From NCBI GenBank assembly GCA_032372955.1, contig GCA_032372955.1_4725.1: a DNA stretch of 64,000 nt. One strand, given 5' to 3'. The notes beneath the pieces are model-generated. The model worked only from the letters and a program-made list of their open reading frames with translations, was not told the origin of the DNA and made no database searches. This stretch comes from Escherichia coli (lineage in GTDB: Bacteria; Pseudomonadota; Gammaproteobacteria; Enterobacterales; Enterobacteriaceae). Every line of letters begins with the position of its first letter. Within the stretch, counting starts at the first letter, position 1. Position numbers and translations under genes: made by a program. This document shows, piece by piece, positions 4,459 to 57,175 of the stretch.

Positions 4459-4482
4459 TTTTCACGGCTATATTACTTAAGT
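4459..4482 (+). promoter_or_regulatory. putative early promoter TTTCACGGCTATATTACTTA
   Basis: Near-identical motif also at 27737 and 57151, related copy at 9736; contains TATATTAC core. Confidence 0.45.
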
Positions 4483-4569
4483 GATGTACAACATCAATCG
4501 ACTGTATAAGGCATATCACATTGTCCTTATATTGGAAATTAAATCCTAACGAAATCCGAGGATAGTAAA

Positions 4570-5034
4570 ATGACTTTAGCACAAGAAACCCAAATTCTGT
4601 TTATCCTGTCTCTCATCCTGGGCGCAGGTCTTATAATTTATTTAGCAGTAGCAGGTATGCGGTTACGTGAAGATGATAAACTTTATCAGATGACCGCCAA
4701 CTGGTTATTACGTCGTATCAACAAAGACTACGACAGCAGCTACTGTGAATTACTCGACAATCTGTCCAAAGACTGGATTCGTGCTTACGCTTACCCTGTT
4801 CGCCGTATGGCACAGCTGAGCAAGAAGTGGTTCAAAGCCAATCCGCGCACGACAATCAAACTCAACGGTATGGAACAAGCAAAGGTAATGACTTGGTTAC
4901 TTAACTTCGAACAGTATCCTGAAAATTGGAAAGTGGCCAAGATTCGTACAAACCGTTCCCTGGATGAAGTTATTCGTTTAGCGGCAGAGTTGCGCGGTCG
5001 TAATGTTAACGACGTTATCGCAGCTTTGGTTTAA
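4570..5034 (+). CDS. hypothetical membrane protein (N-terminal TM helix)
   Basis: ORF track; hydrophobic stretch FILSLILGAGLIIYLAVAG. Confidence 0.65.
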   Translation: MTLAQETQILFILSLILGAGLIIYLAVAGMRLREDDKLYQMTANWLLRRINKDYDSSYCELLDNLSKDWIRAYAYPVRRMAQLSKKWFKANPRTTIKLNGMEQAKVMTWLLNFEQYPENWKVAKIRTNRSLDEVIRLAAELRGRNVNDVIAALV

Positions 5035-5045
5035 GTATTTTTGCG

Positions 5046-5096
5046 GTCTCTCCCTACCTTCGGGTGGGGAGGGGCTGCCCATTCTTTTTTATTTTT
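5046..5096. terminator. rho-independent terminator (stem-loop plus T-tract)
   Basis: CTCTCCCTACC/GGTGGGGAGGGG stem followed by CATTCTTTTTTATTTTTG. Confidence 0.6.
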
Positions 5097-5152
5097 GTAA
5101 CTTTCTACGAATTTCCACCACCCTATGAAATGAAAAGCTTGAGGAGAACGGA

Positions 5153-5602
5153 ATGATCCATTTTGATGGTAATAGCAGCCAGCATTTTTCCTTTGAGGTC
5201 GAACAAACAAACAGTACCTTGGTCGGACGTTTCGGTGATGGTAACACACCGTTGTTTACCTACACGTACATGCTCAATAATGAACAACCGATGCGAATTA
5301 ACGCGACCAACTTCATGGCGGCGTTATGGGTGATCTACGGACTTAAAGTCGCCAACAGTAAATCGTACGCCTACAATAACTTTTTTCATGCTTGGTGGCA
5401 GCTTGAGTGTTATAATCGATTAAAGATTCCCGTACCTAAACATCCAGCAGAGTTGTCCGATATTGTTTATTTGGACTGTGGGTATATCGATATGCATACG
5501 CGAACATTTTACGCACCACGCACCAATGTATCCATGCCCGTCGAACTGGAGTTAGGGCATATGCCTAACTACGATAGATTGGTTGGAATGAATTACGCTT
5601 AA
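5153..5602 (+). CDS. hypothetical protein
   Basis: ORF track; RBS GAGGAG upstream. Confidence 0.65.
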   Translation: MIHFDGNSSQHFSFEVEQTNSTLVGRFGDGNTPLFTYTYMLNNEQPMRINATNFMAALWVIYGLKVANSKSYAYNNFFHAWWQLECYNRLKIPVPKHPAELSDIVYLDCGYIDMHTRTFYAPRTNVSMPVELELGHMPNYDRLVGMNYA

Positions 5603-5615
5603 AGAGGAGTTCCTC

Positions 5616-6023
5616 ATGGCATCGAATCCGTTACCTGGGCTGTCGAGCTTTTTAACCGCGTCGGGAAAAAAGCTGGATGGGTTAATGACCAATTTCGCAA
5701 TATCGAATTATTCCCAGTCGTATTGCTACCAAGGCTCTATCGTTTCACTACCGTACCTCATTGCAACGTCGCAGTATAGCGCACCCAAATTGGAAGATGC
5801 GACATACCGGATGTTGTATGATTATTTAATGCGTTATTACGATCGCGTGGAATTGAAAGTCCGTGTCAAGTATATCGATCCGACGACGGAACGTGTCGAT
5901 CTCCAGATTGGTGGGATTGTCACAGAGAAAGGTATATCGTACGATTTGGGCGGTGTTCTGCGATCCGAGCGTGGTAATTTTATCAAGTGGCAGGAGGAAG
6001 TAAATGAAGGCGCGCCAAACTAA
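5616..6023 (+). CDS. hypothetical protein
   Basis: ORF track; RBS AGAGGAG upstream. Confidence 0.65.
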   Translation: MASNPLPGLSSFLTASGKKLDGLMTNFAISNYSQSYCYQGSIVSLPYLIATSQYSAPKLEDATYRMLYDYLMRYYDRVELKVRVKYIDPTTERVDLQIGGIVTEKGISYDLGGVLRSERGNFIKWQEEVNEGAPN

Positions 6024-6786
6024 CAGCAACGTTAGCGAAGGAACGGATTTATTGGGGTATCCGGCTGGGGTGGTGGTTGTAAATGAAGAAGAGCGCATCC
6101 GTCGCGCTCAGGATCCGTCCATCCCGAAAACAAGACCGGACATGTGGCAGGAGCTGGTAGACAACAGCGAGCTTCTACGAAAAGGTTTACAGGAGATGAC
6201 GCGTCCCAACATCCTGCCTGAATCGCTGTTTGTTAAACATTTCTTGTATCCGTTCGCAGGAATGTTTTCGCAGGATCCTGAATACGCGGAGATGCTGAGT
6301 AATAGCACCATTGTTCACGATTGGTGCAAGATAGCAGGCCAACCGCATCGTGCTGTTAATATTGTTGCTGATGGGAATAACAACAAGGTTCTGTTTACGG
6401 TACCAGCTATCTTTATCCGGACACGTTCATACATCAATCGTGACCCCAATACGTGTTTCCTCGCGATGGTGGACAAAGCACGCCGACAGTATAACTTCAA
6501 TCCTGAAAGCGCTAAAGCTTACGTCGACCATCAGCTTGATCGCTTTGCCCCAAATGAAAGCAAAGACCATGTTGTTGCTGATTACGTGCAATGGCTTCGG
6601 ATTTTTGACCATTATAACGTACCCCTTTACGACGTTCGTGATGGTTCACGTCGTACGGTAAAAGAGCGTGGGTTATTAAATGGATTGAATCTGGCCAGAA
6701 CTTCTTCAACAACTGCGTCGGTGGGTAGTAGAAACATGCCGTCTACGACGGGGACTATTAGCAGCAGCAACTTAGAGGAATTCTGA
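6004..6786 (+). CDS. hypothetical protein
   Basis: ORF track; RBS GGAGGAAG upstream; overlaps neighbours by few codons. Confidence 0.6.
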   Translation: MKARQTNSNVSEGTDLLGYPAGVVVVNEEERIRRAQDPSIPKTRPDMWQELVDNSELLRKGLQEMTRPNILPESLFVKHFLYPFAGMFSQDPEYAEMLSNSTIVHDWCKIAGQPHRAVNIVADGNNNKVLFTVPAIFIRTRSYINRDPNTCFLAMVDKARRQYNFNPESAKAYVDHQLDRFAPNESKDHVVADYVQWLRIFDHYNVPLYDVRDGSRRTVKERGLLNGLNLARTSSTTASVGSRNMPSTTGTISSSNLEEF

Positions 6787-7928
6787 TGCGGGACTTCAGT
6801 CGAAATAAAACGCCTGGGGTATTACGTGGAATCAACTTGTCGGATATTCACTTTATCCATCGTCAAACACCGACAGTAAACCTGATTAGCCAACTACGTT
6901 ACTACATCACAAAAGAAGATCCTGCGCTGCTTGATGTGATTACGTTCAGTGGCGATGTCTTCGATCGTATTACGACATTTGTGACGAGTGATGTGGTTGC
7001 TGTTCGTGCCTGGGGTACCTGGTTGTTACGGTATGCGAGAAAACACGATATTACGTTGATCTTTCTTGAGGGTACCAATTTACACGACCAGAAGCAAAGC
7101 CAGTGGTTCGTTGAACAGAACGAGGTCATGGAGATAGGAGCGAAAGTTCGTTATTACGATGATCTCTGCATGGTTGATGAAGACTTCGGTTTAAAAGTGC
7201 TTTATCTTCCAGATAACTACAGCCACGATCCGGATGTGACGTTGTCGGCTGTGAACCGACTTATTGATGAGAAGGGATCGCCGGACTTCATTCTGATGCA
7301 CGGCGCGTTCGAATATCAGCTTCCACCAGAAGCGTTAAAAGCGACATGTGTTCATAGCAGCGATGCATATAACGCAATGGTAGAGAAGACCCAAGGGTGG
7401 GTCGTGAGCGGGCATATCCACTTACAATCCCAGAAAGGACGTATCATGGTTGGTGGTTCGTTCGGCCGCTTGTCGCATGGCGAAGAAGGTCCAAAGGGGT
7501 ACCTCCGTTATACGTTAACAGAATCGTTTAACGACCAGTGGGAATTTGTTGAGAACAAGAAAGCAGATGTCTACAAGACGATAAAACTGCACGGTCTTGT
7601 TGGAGATGAAATCATTCGTGTGTTGGAACGGGAACTGGCTCCATTGAAGAAGGGCGATCATATTCGAATACGCTGCGATAAGGAAGACGATGCGGCGAAA
7701 ACGTTTCGTTCCATTCCTTCTTTGTATCCAGGCTTTGTCTGGTCAATTAAAACGGACGCCAAGAACAACCAGTCGCTATTAAAGAACAGTTTTGTCAATA
7801 ACGTTATCGAGAAAGGCGGAGACTTGACAAAGGACAACGTTAAGCGTTTGTTGGTCGAACGCATTCGTAATAAATACCCGAACGTTGATGCCTTAAAGGT
7901 TTCTGCTTGGCTTGATACGTTGCCATGA
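6786..7928 (+). CDS. calcineurin-like metallophosphoesterase, SbcD/Mre11-like nuclease
   Basis: Motifs LSDIHF, GDVFD, GTNLHD, LMHGAFE, SGHIH in canonical order. Confidence 0.55.
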   Translation: MRDFSRNKTPGVLRGINLSDIHFIHRQTPTVNLISQLRYYITKEDPALLDVITFSGDVFDRITTFVTSDVVAVRAWGTWLLRYARKHDITLIFLEGTNLHDQKQSQWFVEQNEVMEIGAKVRYYDDLCMVDEDFGLKVLYLPDNYSHDPDVTLSAVNRLIDEKGSPDFILMHGAFEYQLPPEALKATCVHSSDAYNAMVEKTQGWVVSGHIHLQSQKGRIMVGGSFGRLSHGEEGPKGYLRYTLTESFNDQWEFVENKKADVYKTIKLHGLVGDEIIRVLERELAPLKKGDHIRIRCDKEDDAAKTFRSIPSLYPGFVWSIKTDAKNNQSLLKNSFVNNVIEKGGDLTKDNVKRLLVERIRNKYPNVDALKVSAWLDTLP

Positions 7929-7947
7929 TAAGAAGGAGTTGTGGGGT

Positions 7948-8745
7948 ATGAGCGATATGTACGCCCGCACGTTAGGTGATTATCCTTTATCGGTGGGGAC
8001 GTCAGCAACATTATCAGCCGTGCAGCAACAGCCAGAAACACAGATGGATTGGTTGTTCAACCTTCGTACTTTAGCACGCAATTTCGTTGAAAGCTTTGAA
8101 GACGTTGAACAACATAAATTACCGTTATCGATGATAACGGGGGATTTTCAAAACGAGTTACTGCAGCTAAGGCAGTTGGTGAATGAACTCGTTCCCCATA
8201 TTCGCTTGCGGATATATGCGCCAACCTATGCGTCAATAAAGCGTGTTTATCCGCACGCGATACATAAGGAGCCACACACCGAAAAACAAAAAGGACTCGC
8301 TACACTTTATCGTGGGTTGATGGCGTCTGTAGATCGACTCCCTAATATCGAATCGATGGATTGTAAATTACCCACGATAACCAAGACATCGTATATCACC
8401 ACGCACTATGTTTCTGACTTGTTGGCAAGAACCGGTTTTGGTGAACTTATTTTGGTAGAAAGCCATACCGGAACTTTGAAACGAAAACATCAGTGGTCAA
8501 CCAAACTTACTGGTGGGGATCGTCCAGAGGTTGCGAACCTTCCATTTACAAAGATGACCTTGGGGACGTTCGGTGACCAAGCCGTACAGTTCAACAGCGG
8601 GCCGGTGAAAATAAAAAGGATGTTGTTAGATCTTGCGAAACAGAGTCAGTGGAATCCATTAACAACGGAAGACCGTACACGCTTTGGCGTCAACCAGTTA
8701 CGTGACCCCTTTGCAAAACGTTTTCTGTTGGACATGTTCCGCTGA
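7948..8745 (+). CDS. hypothetical protein
   Basis: ORF track frame; ATG 7948 preceded by RBS AGAAGGAG. Confidence 0.6.
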   Translation: MSDMYARTLGDYPLSVGTSATLSAVQQQPETQMDWLFNLRTLARNFVESFEDVEQHKLPLSMITGDFQNELLQLRQLVNELVPHIRLRIYAPTYASIKRVYPHAIHKEPHTEKQKGLATLYRGLMASVDRLPNIESMDCKLPTITKTSYITTHYVSDLLARTGFGELILVESHTGTLKRKHQWSTKLTGGDRPEVANLPFTKMTLGTFGDQAVQFNSGPVKIKRMLLDLAKQSQWNPLTTEDRTRFGVNQLRDPFAKRFLLDMFR

Positions 8746-8818
8746 GGCTGTAATTTTTAACTAATATTGACTATCATCTGAACCAGAAATTGATTCACAC
8801 TACGTAACGAGGCTGAAA

Positions 8819-9610
8819 ATGAGCAATTGGAATTCGGGCAGTAAACCACAAGGAAACATTATTCCTACAGCGTATGACGACAACAACTGGAAACTGTGGG
8901 CGGACGAAAAGGTTGAGGGCGGTAATTCAGTCCCCTCATTGAAAATTAGCGTTGCTAAGAATCAACCGCGTATCACGGTTTACACTGGTCGTAAAGACCA
9001 GCAGGGTCGCGCTGAAAGCATTTGGGCACGCATGAGCTCATACGCGTTCTATAACCTGCTTGCGATCCTCGAGCAGGTTGCTAAGGGTAAGCCAGGCCAA
9101 CGCTTTGCGATGAAGAACGAAAAGGTTATCGACGATCGCAATAACCCAGGTAAGAAGAAACAGATTACCGAAAGTACAACGTGGGTTGGTAAGAACGATG
9201 ATGGTTCGGTATATATCGCTGTAACAGCATACCAAAAACCAAACATCCAATTCGTATTCAAGCCACCGCGTTTCCACGCTCTGGTTGATGAGTCTGGACA
9301 ACCTTTACAGATCGGGGTTGTTTCTCCGCTTTGTGCGTTGGAATTTGTACGTATTCATCGCGCGGTGTTGCCGAGCATCCTCGCAACCAATTTCGACGGT
9401 GAAAGCCGTAGCGTAAGTAATGGTGGCAACAATAACTATAACCGTAACAATAACAACGGCGGCGGTAACCGTAATGCTGGTAACGGCCAGTACAACGGTA
9501 ACTCTAACGCATCAAGTTCGGCTTCAGTGGCCCCTGATACCCGTTGGGATGCGCCAAGCGCAAATGACGACGATGATCCGTCCGTAGCCTTTGATGGCTT
9601 AGCGTTCTAA
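8819..9610 (+). CDS. hypothetical protein, possible ssDNA-binding protein
   Basis: N/G-rich low-complexity linker and acidic C-terminal tail ending DDDDPSVAFDGLAF, reminiscent of SSB C-terminus. Confidence 0.6.
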   Translation: MSNWNSGSKPQGNIIPTAYDDNNWKLWADEKVEGGNSVPSLKISVAKNQPRITVYTGRKDQQGRAESIWARMSSYAFYNLLAILEQVAKGKPGQRFAMKNEKVIDDRNNPGKKKQITESTTWVGKNDDGSVYIAVTAYQKPNIQFVFKPPRFHALVDESGQPLQIGVVSPLCALEFVRIHRAVLPSILATNFDGESRSVSNGGNNNYNRNNNNGGGNRNAGNGQYNGNSNASSSASVAPDTRWDAPSANDDDDPSVAFDGLAF

Positions 9611-9649: not shown

Positions 9650-9735
9650 GGTAACGCGAATATTTTCCGTTAGTGCAAGGTGTCTCGCTTCGGCGGGATG
9701 CCTTGCATGCTGAGCGATAACTCAGCCGGAATCCA

Positions 9736-9763
9736 AAATTATTCACGCTTATATTACCTTTGT
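9736..9763 (+). promoter_or_regulatory. putative early promoter variant (TTCACGCTTATATTACCTTT)
   Basis: Shares TTCAC and TATATTAC with the three conserved copies. Confidence 0.35.
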
Positions 9764-9814: not shown

Positions 9815-11401
9815 ATGCACATAGTGCCCGTCATTACGACGCAAGGAAAAGAAAAGCTGGATCACTATCTCATCAAACACCGTGATGGACGTACTGTGGA
9901 ATTTTCAGGTCAGGGTTACATCAAGATTGATGGGGATATGGCTAGCAATCAGATGCGGGAGATTAACAAGTATCTCGCCTGGATAGAACAAAAGAACCCA
10001 CGTCGAATTGACGACATCTTTGAAGGGTTCGTTAAAGCACGTGAAGCGATGGATAACTACATTGCTCCACAACAACAAATGGAGGAGTTGAGCCGCGCTG
10101 TTGGTGAAATTTACAAACCGGTTGTGTATGAAGAGATTCTGGCATTGTGTAATACCCCAGGTTGGGTAAAATTACCGCCGGACATGAAAACAACATTAGG
10201 TGAGGATGATATACCCGAGAAAACCTATTTACGAAATGATTACGTTGAGTTAACGGCGTTAGCGATCTACGTCCGTCTGATGGTGCCGATTTGGGCAGAG
10301 TTTCTGATTGACGCAGGGAAAACGTACGGGACGGTCCGTAAAGAAGAAGTGGCTATGTCGCTGATGTATAAAACACGCATTCATGATATCGCCGCTTACG
10401 ACCGACTGGAAGACTATATCCGCGCACAAACGGGTGATAAAAAGATCACGCTGTCGATGACCGTGGATTACATGTCGACGGAGAAAGTACCCGGTTGGTT
10501 GCGTTCACAAGCCATCGTTCGTCGTCTCGCTGTACGCGATTTGGACCAAGCTGTACAGCCTGTCGTTAAAGATGGGGTGTTGGTGAGTTGTACGCATCTG
10601 GTAACGTTAATCTTTAGCTATGTGAATAACCTTTGTACGGAACGACGTTTCAGTGGACCGATTCGTGAGAAAACCCCACGAGGAAACGCGCAAGATGAAG
10701 ACAGTCAAGGCGTGATCGATGCGTTGATGGTGAAAGATAAACGTTCACCGCGTGTACTCATTCTTGACATCGCCTATCTTACCCAGATGGAACGTGTGTT
10801 GCACGACGTCGACGAAACGGCACCTTACGGTAAAGTTGAAGACATGTATGCGCGTATCGCAAAACGTTACGATGGATACACGTACGCTAAACACGATGAC
10901 ACCGTTGAGTTAAAACCAATCAACCGCGGATGCCGAGCACTGGCACAATGGTTGCTTGATAGCCATCTTCCGGCGAGAAGTCTGGCACCGATTGAAGCCG
11001 TGCATCAGGCAAAAGCGTTAGCCATCGCAGCGTGCTTGTTAGACCATTGGGGTTTTCCTCAACTGGCCGCGCTGACCGTAGGTATCCAGGTTAAACGCGA
11101 CGATGTTTATCAGATTATCCACCAATTAAAACCACAGGAGATCATTACTGTCAATAAATTGTATCCACACGCCATGTATGAAGATGAACGTACAACTTTA
11201 CCGGTTGTCGGTATTAACATGGTGGCCGATGCGTTTTGTGAATGGGACTGGGATGTTTCAGCAGCAGGCCCGGAAATCCTTGAGAAAGTCCCAGCTGACC
11301 GTAAAGGATTGATGCTTTGTCCAGCAGATATCCGTCAGCAGCTTGTGCAATTAGTTGTTCGATTAAATGAACACGTAGTAAATTTAAGAGGAAAAAAATA
11401 A
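9815..11401 (+). CDS. hypothetical protein
   Basis: ORF track frame; start moved to ATG 9815 with RBS AAAGAGG; upstream part of track ORF overlaps promoter region. Confidence 0.6.
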   Translation: MHIVPVITTQGKEKLDHYLIKHRDGRTVEFSGQGYIKIDGDMASNQMREINKYLAWIEQKNPRRIDDIFEGFVKAREAMDNYIAPQQQMEELSRAVGEIYKPVVYEEILALCNTPGWVKLPPDMKTTLGEDDIPEKTYLRNDYVELTALAIYVRLMVPIWAEFLIDAGKTYGTVRKEEVAMSLMYKTRIHDIAAYDRLEDYIRAQTGDKKITLSMTVDYMSTEKVPGWLRSQAIVRRLAVRDLDQAVQPVVKDGVLVSCTHLVTLIFSYVNNLCTERRFSGPIREKTPRGNAQDEDSQGVIDALMVKDKRSPRVLILDIAYLTQMERVLHDVDETAPYGKVEDMYARIAKRYDGYTYAKHDDTVELKPINRGCRALAQWLLDSHLPARSLAPIEAVHQAKALAIAACLLDHWGFPQLAALTVGIQVKRDDVYQIIHQLKPQEIITVNKLYPHAMYEDERTTLPVVGINMVADAFCEWDWDVSAAGPEILEKVPADRKGLMLCPADIRQQLVQLVVRLNEHVVNLRGKK

Positions 11402-11402
11402 A

Positions 11403-12989
11403 ATGATCCCGATGAATGTTCGTGAAATCCTGATGGTTGAAACCGCACCGTACAACAACGTACAACGTCGTCCACTACGATTCCACGCAGATAGCATGCG
11501 TAGCATCGAAGACTTTATTAACACGACGCGGTTCGGTACGGCAACAACACCATCAGCAATCAATAAGCTTGCAACCGGGTTGTTGCAGCAGTCTGCAGAA
11601 CCTGAGGGGGTTTCGGAGATTGCGAATGGTTGGGGCACACGCCGTTTCCATTTCATGATGGCTGTAGAAGAATCCTTGGCTCTCGCACCAGGAACCAAGC
11701 GTGTCCATTACATTTCTGGATACACCGACCATTCTGTAAGCCTTGATGCGTTTACAACGCGTGCTATCGATCTGCCGAATGAACTGGTGTTCTTCTTCAC
11801 GAATGTAATCCAGGTAACCGAAACAACCACAACGGATATGTTCGGTAAGCAAATCGTTCGTGCAACCCCGATGGATGCAACGAACCTGTTGACTGGTGCA
11901 TACGACCCCGTTAATCGCGATGTTCAGTTCAGTACTCGTGTTCAGGATACGCTGACTTATGCATCGACCGCACGTTGGGTAGGCAATGGTGGTTTTGATA
12001 ACCAGTTCATGGACCCAGCGATGCAGAACGTGATGCAGCAGTTCGATCCCGCCTACGCTGACGTGGTTCATCGTACATCCTACCCACCGCAGCCGGAACC
12101 GGTTTTCCGTGGTGTGGAGGCAGCAATGTGTTTCGCAACGGAGAAAATCAAACCAGCTAGTGCCGATACGAACATCCCAACCATCTATCTAAGAAAAGCC
12201 TTCGATAATGTTGGGGCTATTCGTCAAACGTACGAAAGCGGGTCTCATCCAGGTAGCGCAGAGAACGAGGATATTTACGTAGAAGCCGCTCAAGCTGTTC
12301 GTGAAGAACCGTTGGTTGCGCATCCAGTATTCGGTGCGATTATGCGTGATGAAGGATTCGCTTTCAGCGGTAGCCTGAGTTGGGCTGACATGAAACGGAT
12401 GTTCGGTGAACATATCCGTGACGTCTTAACGTTATTCCCGTATGTGGAAGCCCGTCGCGGTACATCAGCAACCACCGAGTTTGGTTGGATGCCGACCGAC
12501 AGCCAGAGCTGGGATGTGATCGATTATCCAACGCTGTATTGTTCATCGCTTGCTGCAATGATGCCTGCTGCCATGACGTATCGCATGTTGGAATCGTTCC
12601 GTTTCATTGCTGACAACCACGGTCACCCAGAACTCGGTATCATGCCAGGTCAATGGGCGGTTGCGGTTACCGACGCCGTACCGTTCATTAAAGGATACGA
12701 TTGTAACCGTGCTGCTGAACAAATGCGTTCTGACATGATTACCAATATCCTACCCTCCATGTTGGGCAACAACCCGAATGCGGTTATGGTGAGCGGCGCG
12801 ATTAACCTGTTCCTGGACAGCCAGTTCAAGATCAGCGTTGACGGTTCTGCACCGATTCCGTACACCATGCCGAACATCAACCCATCCGCATACAGCCCGC
12901 TGCTCAACCGTAGCCAGCAGGAGGTGTATAAGCTGAGCGTTGATTTGTTTAACCTGGTGGATGCGGTAACTACCAAAGGCAACTTCTAA
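11403..12989 (+). CDS. hypothetical protein
   Basis: ORF track; tightly coupled to upstream gene. Confidence 0.65.
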   Translation: MIPMNVREILMVETAPYNNVQRRPLRFHADSMRSIEDFINTTRFGTATTPSAINKLATGLLQQSAEPEGVSEIANGWGTRRFHFMMAVEESLALAPGTKRVHYISGYTDHSVSLDAFTTRAIDLPNELVFFFTNVIQVTETTTTDMFGKQIVRATPMDATNLLTGAYDPVNRDVQFSTRVQDTLTYASTARWVGNGGFDNQFMDPAMQNVMQQFDPAYADVVHRTSYPPQPEPVFRGVEAAMCFATEKIKPASADTNIPTIYLRKAFDNVGAIRQTYESGSHPGSAENEDIYVEAAQAVREEPLVAHPVFGAIMRDEGFAFSGSLSWADMKRMFGEHIRDVLTLFPYVEARRGTSATTEFGWMPTDSQSWDVIDYPTLYCSSLAAMMPAAMTYRMLESFRFIADNHGHPELGIMPGQWAVAVTDAVPFIKGYDCNRAAEQMRSDMITNILPSMLGNNPNAVMVSGAINLFLDSQFKISVDGSAPIPYTMPNINPSAYSPLLNRSQQEVYKLSVDLFNLVDAVTTKGNF

Positions 12990-12995
12990 TCCATA

Positions 12996-13018
12996 GGTCC
13001 CCTGTTGTAGGGGGGACC
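12996..13018 (+). terminator. GC-rich stem-loop
   Basis: GGTCCCC / GGGGACC inverted repeat 7 nt after stop. Confidence 0.4.
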
Positions 13019-13045
13019 GTTGACGTAAAGAAAAGGAAATACAAT

Positions 13046-14326
13046 ATGTCGAAGCTTATCGAAGCTTATCGCAAAGCACTACAGAGCGTTAACTATTTTG
13101 AGAATGACGCCCACGAATTAGAATATCGTTTTACGGATGGGGATGGTAAAGTTGTTGCGGTTGCCGCTACCGTGGAAAGCATGCCGCTGCTGATGCCGGT
13201 TTCCGAAGTTCGTACCGGAAATCAGCTGGCTGAACGTGTGCTGTTCCATCCGCTAAGTGAAGACGTGATGAACGGCGAATCGGAAGTACTTCAGTTCCTG
13301 CGTCGTGCGATGGTTGTTCGTTTTAATGCCACGCTATGCTCCATGCTGATTTGGATGGTTGAAACCGCAATCAATCCTAAAGAAGCAAAACGTTTCGGAC
13401 CGAAGCAAAAAGAGTTCTTCAACATCCTTGCGGACGCCAGCGATAAAACATTAACGACCCTGGGCAAACTGGTCACCGTTTGGCTGAAACGTGACACACC
13501 GTATACGCTGTCCAAAATTTATCTTCGTCGTACTGGTGCAACCTACATGGGTAAGAAGATGACCCGTGTTGCGGTCGTTACTTTCCCGTTCATGGAAGAA
13601 GAACACATCAGCACGAAAGATAAGAAAACGTACTGGTGTGGTGTTGAGATTTCCAAGAAAGATCTTAACATGCTGAGAAACCTGGTTGAGTACGTTATCC
13701 CGCACGCGGGCGAAGTAAGTGAAACGTACAATGCTGGGTCAAGCGATCCTCATGCTCCGTATTTCGATTGTCTTATCCACAGCTTCGCTAAGCTGATGGA
13801 ACCGCTGAACCATCTCATCAAACTGTTTGGTGATAAGTACGACGGTAAAGAGAACGGTTATTGTGATGTTACCTGGGTCGAGGATTTTGAACCGATCAAT
13901 CAACATCGTGGTCAGATTCCGCCAGCGAAATACAACATGGGTGTAACGCTGAACAGTCGTCCACAGCCGACGGTTAAGCCAAACCCATCAGCAGCTGCAC
14001 ATGAAGGTATGCAACCGCGTCCTGCTTCAACAGGCAGTGTGATCGATAACCTGTTGGGTAAAACCGCACCTGTCCAACCTAATCAGTGGGAAAGTGGTGG
14101 TAACCAACCGGCAGGTAATAGTACGTTTGATGCGTTGATGAACCGTGTTGCGGAACGTAACGGTACGATGTTCAATAATGCTGCTTGGCCAGGCATGGGC
14201 ATGCAACCTGCTGGGTGGGGGATGCCGCCAGCACCGCAGTCGCCAAACGGTTTACGTCGTCGTGCTGAGATGGAACGTAACAACATCCTGAGCGCGTGGA
14301 CAGGACATACTGTAAATCGTTTCTGA
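13046..14326 (+). CDS. hypothetical protein with low-complexity Q/P/G/N-rich C-terminal region
   Basis: ORF track; RBS AAAAGGAAA upstream. Confidence 0.65.
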   Translation: MSKLIEAYRKALQSVNYFENDAHELEYRFTDGDGKVVAVAATVESMPLLMPVSEVRTGNQLAERVLFHPLSEDVMNGESEVLQFLRRAMVVRFNATLCSMLIWMVETAINPKEAKRFGPKQKEFFNILADASDKTLTTLGKLVTVWLKRDTPYTLSKIYLRRTGATYMGKKMTRVAVVTFPFMEEEHISTKDKKTYWCGVEISKKDLNMLRNLVEYVIPHAGEVSETYNAGSSDPHAPYFDCLIHSFAKLMEPLNHLIKLFGDKYDGKENGYCDVTWVEDFEPINQHRGQIPPAKYNMGVTLNSRPQPTVKPNPSAAAHEGMQPRPASTGSVIDNLLGKTAPVQPNQWESGGNQPAGNSTFDALMNRVAERNGTMFNNAAWPGMGMQPAGWGMPPAPQSPNGLRRRAEMERNNILSAWTGHTVNRF

Positions 14327-14357
14327 TGTATTAAGTCATCGAACGACGGCATAAATG

Positions 14358-14386
14358 CCCTCCCTACGCTTTACGCTGTGGGAGGG
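14358..14386. terminator. bidirectional stem-loop between convergent genes
   Basis: CCCTCCC / GGGAGGG between plus-strand stop 14326 and minus-strand stop 14392. Confidence 0.45.
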
Positions 14387-14391
14387 TTATC

Positions 14392-14745
14392 TTAAGCGCT
14401 GTAGTGGATTGTGCGGTACTGTTGTTTTAATGTGTTGATTGCGCTTGTATCGACAATCTTCATGGTTAGAACATCGGCGGTGTATTCCGTAGGGTCGCGA
14501 TAACCATTGAGTCTCATGGTTATCCAGTGCATTGGTTCACTGCCCTCACCGAGCAGAACACGGCACAATCCATAAAAGTTACCATCGAATTCGTAGGCGC
14601 GTTCGGGTGGTATGTCTATCGTAGAGACCAGTCCGGCATTTTTGAAATATTCCAGATGCATCTCAACAACGTTCCTGAAATCAAGATCGTGGATGAGGTC
14701 ATCGGGGTTTGTCTTAAGAAAGTCGTTCAGGGGCGTGTTAGACAT
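14392..14745 (-). CDS. hypothetical acidic protein (reverse strand)
   Basis: ORF track; start set to second Met with RBS GAGG. Confidence 0.55.
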   Translation of the reverse strand: MSNTPLNDFLKTNPDDLIHDLDFRNVVEMHLEYFKNAGLVSTIDIPPERAYEFDGNFYGLCRVLLGEGSEPMHWITMRLNGYRDPTEYTADVLTMKIVDTSAINTLKQQYRTIHYSA

Positions 14746-14776
14746 GACGTACCTCAATTCGATAATAGGAAGTCCT

Positions 14777-16945
14777 ATGCATTATAAAGAAAAACCTCTT
14801 TATGAATCTGTGAAGCAGGCAATCGCTGAAGGTAAAATCATTCCCATTAAACAGGAGTATACTGGCGTAGGGACTGGACTTAACGGGCTACTGCATTATA
14901 ACTCAGCACAGCGCGCTGCGATGTTTGGTGGACATCTTAGCCAAGCGTTGGTTATCAAAGATGCGAAACCGTCCCGACTGACGACGGGGATCGAATACCA
15001 GTACGGACAGAACACGTGGTCAGTAGAGTTTCCAGTCGAATCTCGCATCATAGATATCATCCCACGTTTCCAACCGGGGCATACAGCAAACAGCATCAAA
15101 ACAAACACGATGCATTACGTGCTGTATGAAAACCAAGAGGATGGTAACCGTCACGAGCTACGCTTGCTTGAAGTGCCTGAGCATCACATCATGCATCAGC
15201 AGTACGGTTTCCGTTTTCGACCAACCAACTTGTTCCATTCCCTTCGTCGAGGCCAGATCGTACCGCGATATTCTCGTTTGATGGAAAGCCCAGCGATCAA
15301 TCAAGAAACGCGCGAGTGGGGTTACGGTCGCGATTGCAAAGTGTGTTTCGGTAGCTTCTATCAATGTATCGAGGATGGTGGTGTTGCCCGTCGTGGTGTA
15401 TTGAAGCATTTCACCAGTACCGGCATTGAGAAGCGAACGATCACATCAGGTAAATCACGATACCCAATCAATCTCTACGGTGATGATGAGGTATATCAAG
15501 CAATACCCGAGAACGGTGAGCGTATTCGTAAGGATGGGTTGCTTGCCGCAACACGCGAAATCGATCCTATCCTTAGCGTTGTTGACATGATGACGTGTAA
15601 CCTTCAGCGTGTGGATTATGTTTACGACGATCTCACTTACGCTGAACCGAATGCGCGTGTAACGGATATCGATGTTGTCAGTGATCGACATCGTCGTTCT
15701 GGACGTCAAGCCCGCGAGCGTGCGATTATGATGGAAGAGAAGATGCGTCCTCCGTATCGTCAATTCCTGAAATACGAGAACGCAATCGGTTTGCTTTACA
15801 CCCGAATTCAGGATGCTGTTCGTAAGTACGAACGTGAACGCGTTGGTACGTCGATACGTCATCATCAAACGGTGATGTGGTGGTTGAACCTGGCTGATGC
15901 TGAACACGGTATTGATATCCGCAATCCTAACGGACAGCTACGTCATGTGTTACCAACCCGCGATTACCGTAAAGAGAATCTCGATGATTGGCGTGTGACC
16001 ATCACGTACACGTATGACGTTGTTCCAGGTATCGGGTTTAAATTCACCGGTATGGCGGGTGATAAATTCGTTGTAACCGACATCATGGAAGACGATGAAA
16101 TGCCGGTTGACCAATGGGGTAACGTTGCGGACTTCATGTTCGACGATAGTACGGTAATCAAAAGGATGAGTTTAAGTCGTGTTAACGCACCGTACATCAA
16201 CGGCGTTGGCGATCAGATCATGCGTGAACTGAAACCGGTGATGGATGCAGGCGATCTGGAGACCGCTTGGAACACACTGATGCGCTACTACTATATCGTC
16301 AGTCCTGAATTCGTGGAACAGGTTGTTGAAAAATACTGTATCACGGATGAGGATAAATGGGATCATTTACGGTACGTACAACGCCACGGTACGGAAGTTT
16401 ATATCCCGACGGACAGTATCGCAGCCGGTTCAGAACGTATGGAGAATCTGATTCGTGAGTTCCCGTTGAAGAAAGGTCCTGTACGGTATCGTGGACGTTC
16501 TGGGCAATGGCGGACAACCAAGAACGATATTGCGATCGGCGACACGTACATCATGATGTTGGAGAAGACGGCGAACGACTGGTCAGCTGTGGGTATTCCT
16601 AAACTGCAAGCGCACGGATTACCGTCGAAACTCAGTAATAGCGATAAATACAGTTCTCCGGGTAAAGAGCAACCGACTCGTTACTGTGGTGAATCTGAAC
16701 ATCGTGAAGTTACCGCCTTTGCTGGCGGATGGTTCGCAAGCGTCTTTATGGATTATGCGAACAATCCAAAACAGGTGGATAGCATCACTGAAAGCATCTA
16801 CGCGACCGATAAGCCGTCAGCGATTCCTATTGCGACCAACTTCGAGAAGTATCCCATTGGCGGTAACCGTGCGTTGAGGATTCTGTATCATCAGCTGAAC
16901 GTTGCTGGCGGACAAATCATCGACGCAGATGACTGCGAAAGCTAA
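14777..16945 (+). CDS. RNA polymerase beta-like subunit, C-terminal part
   Basis: SAQRAAMFGGHLSQA resembles beta RAMMGANMQRQAVP; GMAGDKFVVTDIMEDDEMPVDQWGN resembles GDKMAGRHGNKG...EDMPYDENG; start moved to ATG 14777. Confidence 0.6.
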   Translation: MHYKEKPLYESVKQAIAEGKIIPIKQEYTGVGTGLNGLLHYNSAQRAAMFGGHLSQALVIKDAKPSRLTTGIEYQYGQNTWSVEFPVESRIIDIIPRFQPGHTANSIKTNTMHYVLYENQEDGNRHELRLLEVPEHHIMHQQYGFRFRPTNLFHSLRRGQIVPRYSRLMESPAINQETREWGYGRDCKVCFGSFYQCIEDGGVARRGVLKHFTSTGIEKRTITSGKSRYPINLYGDDEVYQAIPENGERIRKDGLLAATREIDPILSVVDMMTCNLQRVDYVYDDLTYAEPNARVTDIDVVSDRHRRSGRQARERAIMMEEKMRPPYRQFLKYENAIGLLYTRIQDAVRKYERERVGTSIRHHQTVMWWLNLADAEHGIDIRNPNGQLRHVLPTRDYRKENLDDWRVTITYTYDVVPGIGFKFTGMAGDKFVVTDIMEDDEMPVDQWGNVADFMFDDSTVIKRMSLSRVNAPYINGVGDQIMRELKPVMDAGDLETAWNTLMRYYYIVSPEFVEQVVEKYCITDEDKWDHLRYVQRHGTEVYIPTDSIAAGSERMENLIREFPLKKGPVRYRGRSGQWRTTKNDIAIGDTYIMMLEKTANDWSAVGIPKLQAHGLPSKLSNSDKYSSPGKEQPTRYCGESEHREVTAFAGGWFASVFMDYANNPKQVDSITESIYATDKPSAIPIATNFEKYPIGGNRALRILYHQLNVAGGQIIDADDCES

Positions 16946-16956
16946 CGAGGTATACG

Positions 16957-17367
16957 ATGGATCATTCGGATAGCGTGATAGCAATGATTACGCCACATCT
17001 GTTGCGCAACCTTCCAGCACCGAACGTCAAAACGAAGAATCATAATCGTCTTCTTGGATTATATCGAGACTGGCGGGATTCTGAAGGATTGACACGGATC
17101 GCGAACATCGATGCGGCTTATGATGCATTTCGTGACGAACACGATGAAAACGGCAATCTTAAGCCCATTGCAGCGCAGTTACGTAAAGATGTCGGTGATG
17201 ATGAAGTTCGCGATCTCCGCATCTGCGAAGAGGTTGCTACGAAGACCGCTCGGGGGTTAATGTTGCTGGAACTCTTCGGTGAACAAGGCCGTACCGAATT
17301 GCAGTCTGAACTTATCGCTTGCTTCGAAGACACGTTGTTAGAATTTAAAGATCGTCCTCCTTTCTGA
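16957..17367 (+). CDS. hypothetical protein
   Basis: ORF track. Confidence 0.65.
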   Translation: MDHSDSVIAMITPHLLRNLPAPNVKTKNHNRLLGLYRDWRDSEGLTRIANIDAAYDAFRDEHDENGNLKPIAAQLRKDVGDDEVRDLRICEEVATKTARGLMLLELFGEQGRTELQSELIACFEDTLLEFKDRPPF

Positions 17368-17378
17368 TGCATATTACG

Positions 17379-17419
17379 CCTCCTCCTGCCCATGTGGTGG
17401 GAGGAGGATGTTTATGCTG
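17379..17419 (+). promoter_or_regulatory. GC-rich hairpin followed by TTTATGCTG
   Basis: CCTCCTCC / GGAGGAGG stem then ATGTTTATGCTG. Confidence 0.45.
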
Positions 17420-17485
17420 ATTAAAGGGACGGTTTATTTTAACTGCTTAACACTAGAATGTGAAGACTTAAAGAGGATCCCTGGT

Positions 17486-17833
17486 ATGAGTGATAACGAA
17501 AATCGTTCCGTAGCAGTGAACTACGTCAACAATTTAATCTTGCAAGAACTTACTCGTGATGCAGTAAGGGCATCAAATAAGCTAGGTTTTATCAACCACC
17601 ACGGACACATCATCGACATTAACAATCCTGACTGCCAGATCGTCGACATACGCAGCCAGGTCGAACACGTCGCTAACGTCATGGTTAAAGCTGAATACTG
17701 GCTGGAAACCATGAAAGAGCATGTTATCCAACCCCAACAATTAGATATCGACGTTGATGAAATTATTGAACAAGTTGAAGAGTCGTTCAATGAACTTGTC
17801 AACCACCGTATCGAAAAAGTTTTAAAGTTTTAA
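17486..17833 (+). CDS. hypothetical protein
   Basis: ORF track frame; start moved to ATG 17486 with RBS AGAGGA. Confidence 0.6.
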   Translation: MSDNENRSVAVNYVNNLILQELTRDAVRASNKLGFINHHGHIIDINNPDCQIVDIRSQVEHVANVMVKAEYWLETMKEHVIQPQQLDIDVDEIIEQVEESFNELVNHRIEKVLKF

Positions 17834-17866
17834 ACGATTGCTAACATTCACCTGAGGAAAAACATA

Positions 17867-18229
17867 ATGAACTTAATTCGCAAATTAACACTGCAAGAAC
17901 TGGCCCGTCCAATCGGTATTGAGGCAGCACTGCATGATGAAGATAGCAATGCGCTACAAGTCGCCGTGTTTACAGCAACCACGAACTACGCTGTTGATGT
18001 AGGTACCATTGAACCCGTACGTAGTTTTGAAGAAGATGCAACCGTTATTGATACCGTTGCTCAAAACGTCGCACAGGGTTTGGTTGTACTTGACCTGGCT
18101 GGTGATGCTGGTGAAGAAGCACTGCGCGAAGCGATGGCTGATTACGCAGCTAACTGGGATACCACCGTCACAATGAAAACATTCGATGGTTCTGAAGAGG
18201 AAGATACGGAAGAAGACAGCGTAGAATAA
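17867..18229 (+). CDS. hypothetical acidic protein
   Basis: ORF track; RBS GAGGAAAAAC upstream. Confidence 0.65.
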   Translation: MNLIRKLTLQELARPIGIEAALHDEDSNALQVAVFTATTNYAVDVGTIEPVRSFEEDATVIDTVAQNVAQGLVVLDLAGDAGEEALREAMADYAANWDTTVTMKTFDGSEEEDTEEDSVE

Positions 18230-18243
18230 TAAACACGAATAAC

Positions 18244-18280
18244 CCTCCCTCTCCCATGCGGAGGTGGGAGGGAATTATGT
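18244..18280 (+). promoter_or_regulatory. GC-rich hairpin followed by AATTATGTCG and T-rich tract
   Basis: CCCTCCCTCTCC / GAGGTGGGAGGG stem. Confidence 0.45.
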
Positions 18281-18386
18281 CGTTGTTTTTATTTTCCGTT
18301 ATTTCTGACGGAAATAAAGCAATATATGCAAAGGCAACGTATATCCAACATGTCATCTATTTCTACGTAGAAGAGGAAATGAGATT

Positions 18387-18872
18387 ATGGAGATAGCACA
18401 CGCCAACATATACGGCGATGGGTTAACGGTATATGAAGAAACATGGGCGAATGAACGAATTGTTTGGCTTAACGGATTCAATGTCAAAACGATCGAGGAT
18501 CCTTCGTTAGGCGTCGCATATACGTATCCTGTCGATACCTTAGAACAGCTATTTCAGGATATTCGTAACGACCTCATTGAAGTGGAGGGTGTGGATGGAA
18601 CGGTTTATGGCCGAGTCGATAAGTTCGGACGTGACCTTCGAGGCGATCATCCAAACATCATTTCTATTGGTGTTTATCCGTATTCGACATTCCCGTTTGT
18701 TGATGGCGTTTATGTTATCCGACCAAAGTTGGTTGGTGAAGAAAACGTATACCGTAACGATAAAGGATTGCGTGTGACCGAAGTGAGACAGATAAAGGGC
18801 TTCATTCTCACGGTTGTTTCGGATATATCAGACGCTATGGATCCGTACGCTCTACGACAGAAAGCCGGGTAA
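18387..18872 (+). CDS. hypothetical protein
   Basis: ORF track; RBS AGAGGAAA upstream. Confidence 0.65.
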   Translation: MEIAHANIYGDGLTVYEETWANERIVWLNGFNVKTIEDPSLGVAYTYPVDTLEQLFQDIRNDLIEVEGVDGTVYGRVDKFGRDLRGDHPNIISIGVYPYSTFPFVDGVYVIRPKLVGEENVYRNDKGLRVTEVRQIKGFILTVVSDISDAMDPYALRQKAG

Positions 18873-19017
18873 TGTCGCCGACTTTTACTCCGGCAGTGGA
18901 GATATATTAACACCTACATAACCTAAGAGAAGGGATTCCCGATGCTATCATGGCGATAGTAAATTCCAACGGAATTGGTAAACCGTATGATAAAACCATT
19001 TAAATCGGAAAGTAATA

Positions 19018-22595: not shown

Positions 22596-22627
22596 CGATA
22601 GCGTTTGGTGGAATCAAAAATCAATGA

Positions 22628-22646: not shown

Positions 22647-22663
22647 TTATAACCGGAGCATGT

Positions 22664-53609: not shown

Positions 53610-53637
53610 CCCTCCCGGCATGGGAGGGCTTATGCCG
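53610..53637 (+). promoter_or_regulatory. GC-rich hairpin followed by CTTATGCCG
   Basis: CCCTCCC GGCAT GGGAGGG. Confidence 0.5.
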
Positions 53638-55001: not shown

Positions 55002-55045
55002 GTGGTTATGTAAAGAGAAATGGAAAAAGATAAAGAGGGCTTTAA

Positions 55046-55645
55046 ATGACAGTGGTGAGTATTACTGAGCCGCGGTTTATCCGCGAAGTTATCGACCGTC
55101 GTCGATCGGTGATCGTTGCTTACGGACGAATGGAAAGTACCGCACCTCAAGAACTTTGCGTGCTATTCCAGGGGTGTTTCGTACACCGACAGGAAGGCCA
55201 TAAGGGTAAAATCGTTCCTGGTGATTTGATTAAAGCGATGCGTAAGATCGATGTTGAACAACGCAAGCTGAATCTGTCGCATCGTCTGCCTCCCCTCGAT
55301 GAGGCCGAAGCCAAAGACTTCGCCGATCGGGTTATGAAATCAGCTATCGTTCAGTACTTCGGAAACATGCCAAGCAAACGTAATAAAGCCTTACATGTTG
55401 AATCCGATCAGCTGCTTCATTGGAATTCGAAAGCGTTCCGATTCGAAGAGGTGTTCTTACCCACTTTCGGTAAACGGTTGGCGTGGGACTTTTCAACAGA
55501 GTATGTTTACAGCGGAGACATCCCGCCAGAAATACAACATAAGAAAGGGAAAGTACTAGAAGAGCAAACAGAAGCTGCAGTCATCGAACAGGTTTACCAG
55601 CGTCTGACATTCTGGTTGTTCGGACCAATACTGGAACCTAAGTAA
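55046..55645 (+). CDS. hypothetical protein
   Basis: ORF track; RBS AAAGAGGG upstream. Confidence 0.6.
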   Translation: MTVVSITEPRFIREVIDRRRSVIVAYGRMESTAPQELCVLFQGCFVHRQEGHKGKIVPGDLIKAMRKIDVEQRKLNLSHRLPPLDEAEAKDFADRVMKSAIVQYFGNMPSKRNKALHVESDQLLHWNSKAFRFEEVFLPTFGKRLAWDFSTEYVYSGDIPPEIQHKKGKVLEEQTEAAVIEQVYQRLTFWLFGPILEPK

Positions 55646-55723
55646 AACATTACATACACCAAATAACTTTTTAATACCGGGTAAATCCTCCTTATCTAAA
55701 CATATTTCAAAAGGACAGTAATC

Positions 55724-56170
55724 ATGCAAATTACAAAAGCAGAACGTATCGAAATTTTCAAAACCACAAAAACCAACGAACAGAATCGAATCGCTAACAA
55801 TACTCGACTGGTTGCTCGAATGTTGCGTGCGGGCTACGAGCAAGCCTCTCGATTTACCAGCCATTTAAAGCAGACTGGCATTGCTTATTACGACGAAGAT
55901 AAAGACATTCTGATTTACACCGGATGGATCGAAAACCATTGCTGGTGCGATCACGGACATGCGATAATGCACCTGCTCCCAAGCGGTAACGTTAGCGTAA
56001 CGTTTACATTAACGCCGTTGATGGTGCGTCGTGCGTTCCGTATGAATAACTTCATGGAACTGCAGGCGTACGTCCCAATAGCAGCAAAGATGGTATTACC
56101 GACCATCCACGATTGCACGGATATTGTATTCGATGGAAAAGACCTATCCATCACGTACTATTTAGATTGA
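55724..56170 (+). CDS. hypothetical protein
   Basis: ORF track; RBS AAAGGA upstream. Confidence 0.6.
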   Translation: MQITKAERIEIFKTTKTNEQNRIANNTRLVARMLRAGYEQASRFTSHLKQTGIAYYDEDKDILIYTGWIENHCWCDHGHAIMHLLPSGNVSVTFTLTPLMVRRAFRMNNFMELQAYVPIAAKMVLPTIHDCTDIVFDGKDLSITYYLD

Positions 56171-56177
56171 GGGAAAG

Positions 56178-57134
56178 ATGATGGCTGTGCTAACGCCCAG
56201 ATACTTCACCTTCGTTTGCGGTAATAAACCGAAATTTAGTTACAGTGATGATATCCATCGCATGCTACGTAACCGCGTAGCAAAAGCGTTGATTGCACTC
56301 ATTTCGGAGCGTTACGGGTTTGGTCTCGATTACCCCAAAGAAGGAGGTCGGCTGGTTGCTCCGTTACCACCGAATGATCATCCGATACACCCGTTATTGG
56401 ATACGGTGATTCTTCCCCTGTTCACTGAACAGACGCCCCTAACAAAAAGTTTATGTCGCCATTTGCTCTATGATTACAGTGTGCTGTGGGAGCCATTACG
56501 TACGATGCAACCACCGCGTAATTTAGGCGTATTTGACAAGTATGAAGTGTCAACCATTGTTAATCTGCTTGGCGGCGAACATGCTTTAGGTTGGCGCGTT
56601 GCCGATGAACTTACGATAAGTTGGGGGGTGAGTAACGTCACAGATTACGATATAGACCGTAAACAAATCTGTCTTTGGGAGCATACCGGCCCGACAGTGC
56701 AAGAACTGCTTGATATGCCCAATCTCTTCTACACGGGAGTGATACTGGGTTATCGGCCAGGGGATAAGGACTTCTACCTCGAAAATCATCGATGGTTAAC
56801 GCAATATGGGCACACTTTAACCTACCCAAAACTTGAAGAAATGGGGAATAATGTTTGGTGTATCCGTAATTTAGCCATTCTTCCCGATAACGAGCATTTT
56901 GCGAAAATACTTGCCGATAAAGGAGGCATGGAAGATATTTACAGCGTGTGTTTTGATTTAGGCATCGCCTGTGTCTTTCGTATCGCTGACGTCGGAGGGA
57001 GTCCGCGCATCGAGATGGTTGAACGCTATCGTTGGGCAGAAGGTACGATACCACCTGATGAAATACTCAAACTTTTCCCTGAGGTTGTGGTTAAACGGAT
57101 TAATGAGATCCAACCCTACTTAGCAAAAGCGTGA
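56178..57134 (+). CDS. hypothetical protein
   Basis: ORF track; RBS GAGGGAAAG upstream. Confidence 0.6.
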   Translation: MMAVLTPRYFTFVCGNKPKFSYSDDIHRMLRNRVAKALIALISERYGFGLDYPKEGGRLVAPLPPNDHPIHPLLDTVILPLFTEQTPLTKSLCRHLLYDYSVLWEPLRTMQPPRNLGVFDKYEVSTIVNLLGGEHALGWRVADELTISWGVSNVTDYDIDRKQICLWEHTGPTVQELLDMPNLFYTGVILGYRPGDKDFYLENHRWLTQYGHTLTYPKLEEMGNNVWCIRNLAILPDNEHFAKILADKGGMEDIYSVCFDLGIACVFRIADVGGSPRIEMVERYRWAEGTIPPDEILKLFPEVVVKRINEIQPYLAKA

Positions 57135-57150
57135 ATGGGTTAATACATTA

Positions 57151-57175
57151 ATTTTCACGGCTATATTACTTAGGT
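57151..57175 (+). promoter_or_regulatory. putative early promoter TTTCACGGCTATATTACTTA
   Basis: Third identical copy; followed by hairpin GGTGAAGC...GCTTCACC. Confidence 0.45.

Follow-up and report, generated by a model that had tools for sequence, protein, structure and literature searches.

The 64,000-nucleotide stretch analyzed here (the window; Escherichia coli assembly GCA_032372955.1, contig GCA_032372955.1_4725.1) carries four plus-strand copies of an AT-rich element, termed P1 to P4, each lying upstream of a plus-strand gene. As argued below, these four sites are very probably early promoters of the phiKZ class, used by a multisubunit virion RNA polymerase (vRNAP), which the phage carries in its particle and injects along with its DNA. 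At 97% identity, the window matches Escherichia phage vB_EcoM_Goslar, along whose minus strand it extends from ~171.2 to 107.0 kb; judged by this sequence identity, the source phage is a Goslar-like, nucleus-forming, phiKZ-like jumbo phage (chimallivirus). The window is also syntenic with phiKZ gp55–gp75 and contains homologues of phiKZ gp55, gp68, gp71, and gp74, which belong to the second, non-virion RNA polymerase (nvRNAP) of these phages.

Each of the four sites is followed by plus-strand genes. P1 (4446–4483) precedes a unit of seven co-directional open reading frames (ORFs) at 4570–9610 (from 4570–5034 through 8819–9610; gp182–gp176 in the Goslar annotation), the last of which, at 8819–9610, encodes the homologue of Goslar gp176/ChmC (bioRxiv 10.64898/2026.04.21.720040). 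P2 (9727–9764) precedes the unit at 9815–23892, in which BLASTP against phiKZ and the Goslar annotation identified genes for the gp68-like, sigma-like nvRNAP subunit (9815–11401; 24% identity to phiKZ gp68, 4e-34), a gp69/PicA-like protein (11403–12989; phiKZ gp69), nvRNAP beta (14612–16945; phiKZ gp71, 2e-43), the C-terminal part of nvRNAP beta' (19018–21024; phiKZ gp74, 30% identity, 2e-96), and a helicase (21021–22595; Goslar annotation), along with others such as the gene at 13046–14326. P3 (27726–27763) sits in a divergent gap between a minus-strand gene (25515–27644) and the plus-strand gene at 27805, and is followed by ~50 co-directional ORFs spanning 29 kb (27805–57134; gp159–gp106 in the Goslar annotation). 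This block begins with an HD-domain protein and also encodes thymidylate synthase, an NAD-dependent DNA ligase, an exoribonuclease, and a methyltransferase; the position-weight-matrix scan found no further motif copy inside it, and Goslar annotates two terminators within the equivalent block. P4 (57139–57176) precedes a gene at 57243–57560 for a 105-aa protein of no known family. No function was assigned by PHROGs to the genes immediately following P1 and P4. All nvRNAP subunit genes of the window are downstream of a motif copy, and no vRNAP gene is.

The exact motif TTCACGGCTATATTACTTA is found at 4461–4479, 27741–27759, and 57154–57172, always on the plus strand, i.e., three copies where 0.02 would be expected by chance and where none of 100 shuffled sequences reaches three; no additional copy with up to three mismatches exists across the window. 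A first-pass annotation of the window, made from the letters alone, had reported an identical 20-mer at three loci and a variant near 9736. The repetition is real, and the variant copy, TTCACGCTTATATTACC, was located at 9742–9758 (plus strand), but the coordinates given were 2–6 nt off, and the string as written has 19 bases. The stretch truly common to the three exact copies is 20 nt, TTTCACGGCTATATTACTTA, and takes in a leading T at 4460, 27740, and 57153; it is followed in all three by one variable base and then GTG. The shorter core TATATTAC occurs four times in the window, always on the plus strand and exactly at P1–P4. An unbiased repeat search returned the element as the top two direct-repeat families (D1/D2), and in a position-weight scan, P1–P4 score between 40 and 54 bits, with the next match at 21.3 bits and a maximum of 4.9 bits in shuffled sequence. 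The start codons (ATGs at 4570, 9815, 27805, and 57243) lie 91, 57, 46, and 71 nt past the motif's end, within the 40–110 bp that had been claimed, and the four unit starts that had been proposed coincide with the first ORFs downstream of the sites.

That next match, at 18885–18932 (plus strand; reading ...CCTACATAACCTAAGAGAAG, with TACATAAC at 18915–18922), lies above the shuffled sequences and far below P1–P4. It is located upstream of the gp74-like polymerase gene at 19018, and its Goslar orthologue scores 16.6 bits; by sequence, this degenerate copy could be a weak or differently timed promoter.

In general terms, each promoter would be an element of ~38 bp, bound by the injected virion polymerase and built of four parts: (i) an A/T-rich upstream box, from about −37 to −24, with a T-run at its end; (ii) the lineage-specific box TTCACGG, from −23 to −17; (iii) the invariant core TATATTAC, from −14 to −7; and (iv) a conserved T-G(A) six bases past the core, with initiation predicted at that G. 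P1, an exact copy found in both repeat families, scores highest (53.7 bits) and consists of the upstream A/T box GTTAATCCAACATT (4446–4459), the −20 box TTTCACGG (4460–4467), and the core at 4469–4476; the TAA at 4448–4450, which is the stop codon of the ORF upstream, falls within its A/T box. P2, the variant copy (46.1 bits), reads GGAATCCAAAATTA, TTCACGCT, the core at 9750–9757, and then CCTTTGTG, while the cores of the exact copies P3 (40.6 bits) and P4 (49.8 bits) are at 27749–27756 and 57162–57169, respectively. Because, at each site, six bases separate the core from a conserved G, transcription is predicted to start at G4483, G9764, G27763, and G57176, leaving 5' leaders of 87, 51, 42, and 67 nt for P1 to P4. 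The arrangement TATATTAC-N5-TG is present at all four window sites and at 10 of 10 phiKZ sites, and for phiKZ and phiR1-37 the start has been reported 6 nt downstream of the element (PMC5312081). A 21-codon ORF, MYNINRLYKAYHIVLILEIKS, at 4484–4549 (plus strand) begins one base past the predicted P1 start, inside the 87-nt leader, and may be due to chance.

The TATATT within the core matches five of the six bases of TATAAT, and P4 also has TTAATA 16 nt upstream, for nine of 12 matches in total, which raises the question of whether the sites are host sigma-70 promoters, with TATATT as the −10 hexamer, used early by the E. coli RNA polymerase. We regard this as very improbable. In a sigma-70 scan, only P4 of the four satisfied even the minimal criterion, a yield no higher than that of shuffled sequence, and the best-conserved positions (TTCACGG, the AC after TATATT, and the TG at +1) are not sigma-70 features. 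Furthermore, a Pseudomonas phage with rifampicin-resistant development uses the same core (PMC4666361), and at the early stage a vesicle surrounds both the Goslar DNA and the vRNAP (bioRxiv 10.1101/2023.09.20.558163).

The whole Goslar genome (237 kb) was assembled and scanned by weight matrix and with the pattern TAYATTACYT. Its main coding strand is the minus strand, and all ten TATATTAC copies of the genome are on it; eight of them have the extended motif. In total, 13 TAYATTACYT sites were found, including five TACATTAC variants. Every one of the 13 has the orientation of the main coding strand and sits in a gap between annotated genes, with a co-oriented gene downstream, although one overlaps an annotated 62-aa ORF; N3-TGA follows 12 of them. 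Their core starts include Goslar positions 166069, 160791, 142800, and 113797. No vRNAP gene was found at short range behind any of the 13. The site at Goslar 172978, just outside the window, precedes chmA (gp246), which is described as early-expressed in the chimallivirus literature (bioRxiv 10.64898/2026.04.21.720040); its transcript is near the control level when Goslar infection stalls, upon ChmA knockdown, at the stage of the vRNAP-containing vesicle (bioRxiv 10.1101/2023.09.20.558163).

In two Goslar relatives from IMG/VR, the sites orthologous to TACATTAC sites read TATATTAC. This swap at orthologous positions places the two forms in one class, and a separate (middle) class of TACATTAC promoters was therefore rejected. 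When the window, Goslar, and the two relatives are compared, the differences fall on the N positions of the consensus and spare the conserved ones. The TTCACG-NN-TATATTACYT sub-type also recurs, in several copies each, in uncultivated jumbo-phage contigs of 183–278 kb, whose homologues are 20–35% identical to Goslar proteins (blastx against Goslar ORFs), i.e., distant relatives; megablast of two such contigs matched no GenBank phage.

The first-pass annotation had likened the motif to the early promoters of phiKZ-like phages, and the likeness holds at the level of sequence, in the common TATATTAC-N5-TG core, in the flanks, and in the positions before gp054 and gp068. phiKZ early promoters are described as 28–32 sites with an AT-rich consensus that serve the RNA polymerase injected from the virion (Ceyssens 2014, as relayed in PMC8244752, PMC10914365, and PMC7598289). 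We derived phiKZ sites straight from the first 100 kb of its genome, where TATATTAC forms ten well-built coding-strand sites with a T-run and an A-rich box upstream, one of them 80 nt upstream of gp054 (chimallin) and another before gp068. The primary start site of gp054 has been linked to the early promoter motif by dRNA-seq, a transcription start-site mapping method (PMC8244752), and the chmA promoters of the two phages are nearly superimposable (TGAAAAAAATTTCAGGGTTATATTACCTAGGTGAAT in Goslar, TGAAAAAAATTTGAGATTTATATTACTAAATTGAAT in phiKZ). When the 8-base core was masked and all window positions were ranked by a matrix made from the phiKZ flanks, P1–P4 fell in the top 0.018%, 0.59%, 2.1%, and 0.028%, respectively. 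In common with phiKZ early promoters, the sites thus have the 8-base core, its spacing to TG(A), the T-run above about −19, and the A-rich box, and they are co-oriented, intergenic, often just past a hairpin, and placed before chimallin and gp68. They differ in that positions −23 to −15 read TTCACGG(C) here, versus TTTAAACAG or TTGAGAT in phiKZ, and the bases directly after the core are CYT here, versus tAA in phiKZ; the number of sites is only 13 over the 237 kb of Goslar, compared with the ten in the first 100 kb of phiKZ.

P2 is positionally orthologous to the phiKZ site at 57984, upstream of gp068, and to a site at ~7955 in Moabitevirus L061. The motif before the gp68 homologue is kept in the Serratia/Pectobacterium Moabiteviruses, although the proteins are only 22–24% identical. 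In the chmC–gp68 gap of Phikzvirus, Moabitevirus, and the window alike, a strong hairpin is followed within ~20–45 nt by the TATATTAC element and then by the gp68 homologue. In the window, this hairpin is a 16-bp stem-loop at 9673–9708 (plus strand; −31.6 kcal/mol, z = −5.8), terminator-like without a T-run, and its counterparts in the orthologous gaps have z = −4.3 in phiKZ and z = −5.9 in Moabitevirus, again with the hairpin-then-promoter layout. A scan for T-run terminators called nothing adjoining the four sites and did not call the stem-loop at 9673–9708.

Taken with the window and Goslar data, these comparisons support placing the sites in the early class. Jumbo phages that encode RNA polymerases each have a conserved ~10-nt AT-rich motif at about −10 upstream of early operons, which can be located bioinformatically and is the early promoter wherever tested (PMC7598289). 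The source phage is one of those jumbo phages that encode two RNA polymerases, a multisubunit one packaged in the virion and a non-virion one; in Goslar, five vRNAP subunits (gp78, gp196, gp205, gp207, and gp210) were found in the virion by mass spectrometry (bioRxiv 10.64898/2026.04.21.720040), and the enzyme transcribes early genes inside the membrane vesicle that holds the phage DNA (bioRxiv 10.1101/2023.09.20.558163). The element is AT-rich, ~10 nt long, and over-represented, with a core invariant at the four window sites and TAYATTAC kept in all 13 sites of Goslar; comparison of the consensus sequences and the flank matrix show a T-rich stretch above −19 as well as conservation at −20 and −30; and the copies are upstream of, and co-oriented with, operons that include the chimallin and nvRNAP genes. 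All nvRNAP subunits of phiKZ are early products (PMC4666361), so nvRNAP genes behind copies of the motif are what an early promoter leads one to expect. From the motif, its placement, and its positional orthology with phiKZ sites, all of which were observed directly, we infer recognition by the vRNAP, early timing, and the exact starting nucleotide.

On this basis, P1 would open a seven-gene unit of small or uncharacterized genes that closes with chmC and the hairpin at 9673–9708, whereas P2 would drive the gp68-like specificity subunit, PicA, nvRNAP beta/beta', and the helicase, leading to the switch to middle and late transcription. The early program would thereby build the enzyme for the later program, as in phiKZ. 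P3 would open the 29-kb block of nucleotide-metabolism and replication genes, and P4 a further block of small genes.

Several points weigh against assigning the sites to the early vRNAP class. We found no mapped transcription start for this phage or for Goslar in the literature, and Goslar RNA sequencing (RNA-seq), in which 175 of 249 genes are on by 5 min, does not discriminate between units (bioRxiv 10.1101/2023.09.20.558163). Thirteen promoters for ~175 early genes imply that transcripts are very long (29 kb after P3) or that there are more promoters, weaker or unrecognized. No terminator precedes P1 or P4, which would thus boost transcription within units and not mark unit boundaries. Downstream of P4 there is an endolysin gene, and endolysins are usually late. 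Finally, the sub-string ATTACC resembles the weak phiKZ middle-promoter motif AAAATTACC (PMC4666361).

This last resemblance leads to the idea that the sites serve the second, non-virion polymerase as middle promoters, or have a dual early/middle role. The phiKZ middle promoter is an AT-rich motif that is weak and has its center ~22–24 nt upstream of the start site, given as AAAATTACC or as TACT after an A-run (PMC4666361 and PMC8244752); Goslar-type sites contain ATTACC(T), which is present in the variant copy P2 and at several Goslar sites, some with an A-run upstream, and phiKZ gp054 has both early and middle start sites (PMC8244752). A middle role is nonetheless unlikely, for four reasons: the full 8-base core and the TG spacing are identical to those of the sites before phiKZ gp054 and gp068; in such phages, the strongly conserved, findable motif is the early one, and middle and late motifs are weak (PMC7598289); the motif precedes nvRNAP subunit genes, whose first expression cannot depend on the nvRNAP; and the exchange of TACATTAC and TATATTAC at orthologous sites indicates a single class. 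Early promoters for the vRNAP remain the reading that we favor.

Half of the window sites have an additional feature at the predicted start. At P1, the inverted repeat TGATGT-aca-ACATCA (4482–4496, plus strand) begins at −1/+1, and the stretch from +1 to +50 has z = −3.5; by sequence, an RNA begun there would fold into a hairpin at its extreme 5' end. At P4, AGGTGAAGC and GCTTCACCT, separated by 13 nt, form an inverted repeat (57172–57202, plus strand) that spans −4 to +27 (z = −2.65); in the relative L044, its stem is kept and its loop differs. A perfect inverted repeat of at least 6 bp starting between −8 and +3 was found at two of the four window sites and six of the 13 Goslar sites (226695, 187639, 166069, 113797, 86705, and 49732), compared with 4.9% of random positions, 0–2 of 13 in shifted control windows, and only one of ten phiKZ sites. 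The repeats also occur in relatives (loci L006, L016, L020, L019, and L044), where stems are kept and loops replaced, e.g., TGATAAGA-gcaaaata-TCTTATCA versus TGATAAGA-catcgggt-TCTTATCA. Some left arms take in the conserved CCT...TGA of the promoter. The repeats could act as a 5' RNA hairpin or as an operator. A universal 5' hairpin was rejected, since only two of the four window sites have one, and P2 and P3 fold no better than shuffled sequences.

Such repeats, which lie over the conserved 3' part of the element at about half of the Goslar-lineage sites and could be bound by a dimer, might also be taken as the mark of a site for a phage DNA-binding protein (an operator, or a packaging or partition site) or of a mobile-element remnant, with no promoter involved. 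The placement of the sites makes this highly doubtful: all 13 Goslar sites are co-oriented with the genes downstream and always upstream of them in an intergenic gap, and the position before the same genes is kept across three genera. The conserved core is, moreover, asymmetric, and the inverted repeats, which differ in sequence from site to site, are absent from half of the sites. A promoter role and an extra operator role are compatible and not mutually exclusive.

The element can also be set beside better-characterized phage promoters. One is the AR9 early promoter, with the experimentally defined consensus AAATATATATTAT-(6N)-G+1 (PMC5312081), whose spacing the window sites match; it likewise has a TATATTA(T/C) core, six bases, and an initiating G, and is read by a virion multisubunit polymerase with high sensitivity to single deviations. 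AR9 differs in being a uracil-DNA Bacillus phage outside Chimalliviridae, and its promoter has a pure AT run upstream without a TTCACGG-type box. The early promoters of 201phi2-1 (PMC11512511) are AT-rich, ~10 bp above the start, conserved at −10, −20, and −30, and placed before small hypothetical genes; only six sites were recovered experimentally, and the likeness drawn here is one of description, not of sequence. T7/SP6 and N4 promoters are similar in that a phage-specific, conserved sequence of ~20 nt is repeated along the genome, and N4, as proposed here, uses a virion-injected polymerase. They differ in having no sequence resemblance and in relying on a single-subunit enzyme family. N4 early promoters, in addition, are DNA hairpins upstream of the start, whereas here the inverted repeats are at or after the start and optional. 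An N4-type hairpin promoter (a 5–7-bp stem and a 3-nt loop upstream of the start) was rejected on these grounds: the repeats begin at −8 to +3 and run downstream, are present at only the minority or half of sites counted above (six of 13 in Goslar, two of four in the window), and have loops of 3–13 nt.

Our literature search found no published promoter motif or start-site map for Goslar, and a full-text search for TATATTAC returned only unrelated papers; the element is apparently unreported, while its kind is already well known from phiKZ. Its interest is therefore mainly practical. Goslar is the E. coli model for nucleus-forming phages, with an early program run in the vesicle by the injected polymerase. 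A ~38-bp consensus with 13 genome sites, four of them in the window, gives testable starts and allows RNA-seq coverage to be re-read; it also offers templates for the biochemistry of the virion polymerase and parts for reporter expression or edits specific to the vesicle stage. The cascade from the virion polymerase to the genes of the second polymerase appears wired as in phiKZ, which confirms an expected feature.

A broader reading is tentative, and we consider it possible rather than probable: early-promoter specificity may be conserved far more deeply than the literature's 'different from phage to phage' implies, with the start-site repeats of the Goslar lineage as an added layer of control. 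TATATTAC-N5-TG and the positions before chimallin or gp68-like genes are common to Pseudomonas phiKZ, E. coli Goslar, and the Serratia/Pectobacterium Moabiteviruses, at 22–31% protein identity. If this reading is true, virion polymerases could cross-recognize promoters between genera, with the short −20 box, specific to each lineage (TTCACGG versus TTTAAACAG), as the discriminator. The repeats, in turn, may be 5' hairpins, serving either to stabilize early mRNAs or to tag them for leaving the vesicle; alternatively, they may be an operator by which early transcription is turned off.

A second family of hairpins was noted in the window, in which CCCTCCC-loop-GGGAGGG is followed by YTTATGC, at 3585–3616, 29560–29584, 53610–53634, and 60467–60498 (plus strand; −14.6 to −25.1 kcal/mol). 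The same stem with the tail GGGAGGCTTTATG is found at seven places in the first 100 kb of phiKZ, three of them ~40 nt upstream of early promoters, and by sequence the family looks like a terminator signal common to chimallivirus genera. The ATG in the tail at 3614 coincides with the Goslar-annotated start codon of the next gene.

Directly after the gp55-like nvRNAP gene at 323–1672 (plus strand; 31% identity to phiKZ gp55), the group I intron model matches twice in tandem over its full length, at 1545–1881 and 1996–2323 (plus strand). The two matches score 30.4 and 44 bits (E = 1.4e-5 and 1.2e-9), below the Rfam gathering score of 50, at which Rfam has no match in the window. At this locus, Goslar has one annotated intron and an HNH endonuclease gene (the latter at Goslar 168217–169281), whereas in the window the HNH gene is absent and 368 nt are added (1564–1931), which hold the second intron-like match. 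Given these matches and the extra segment, the 449-aa ORF at 323–1672 probably runs through into an intron.

Three further segments, at 34287–35000, 36417–37078, and 55646–55691, have no blastn match to Goslar (E cut-off 1e-20), in surroundings that are collinear and 92–98% identical; judged from this alignment, they are small replacements within the block downstream of P3.

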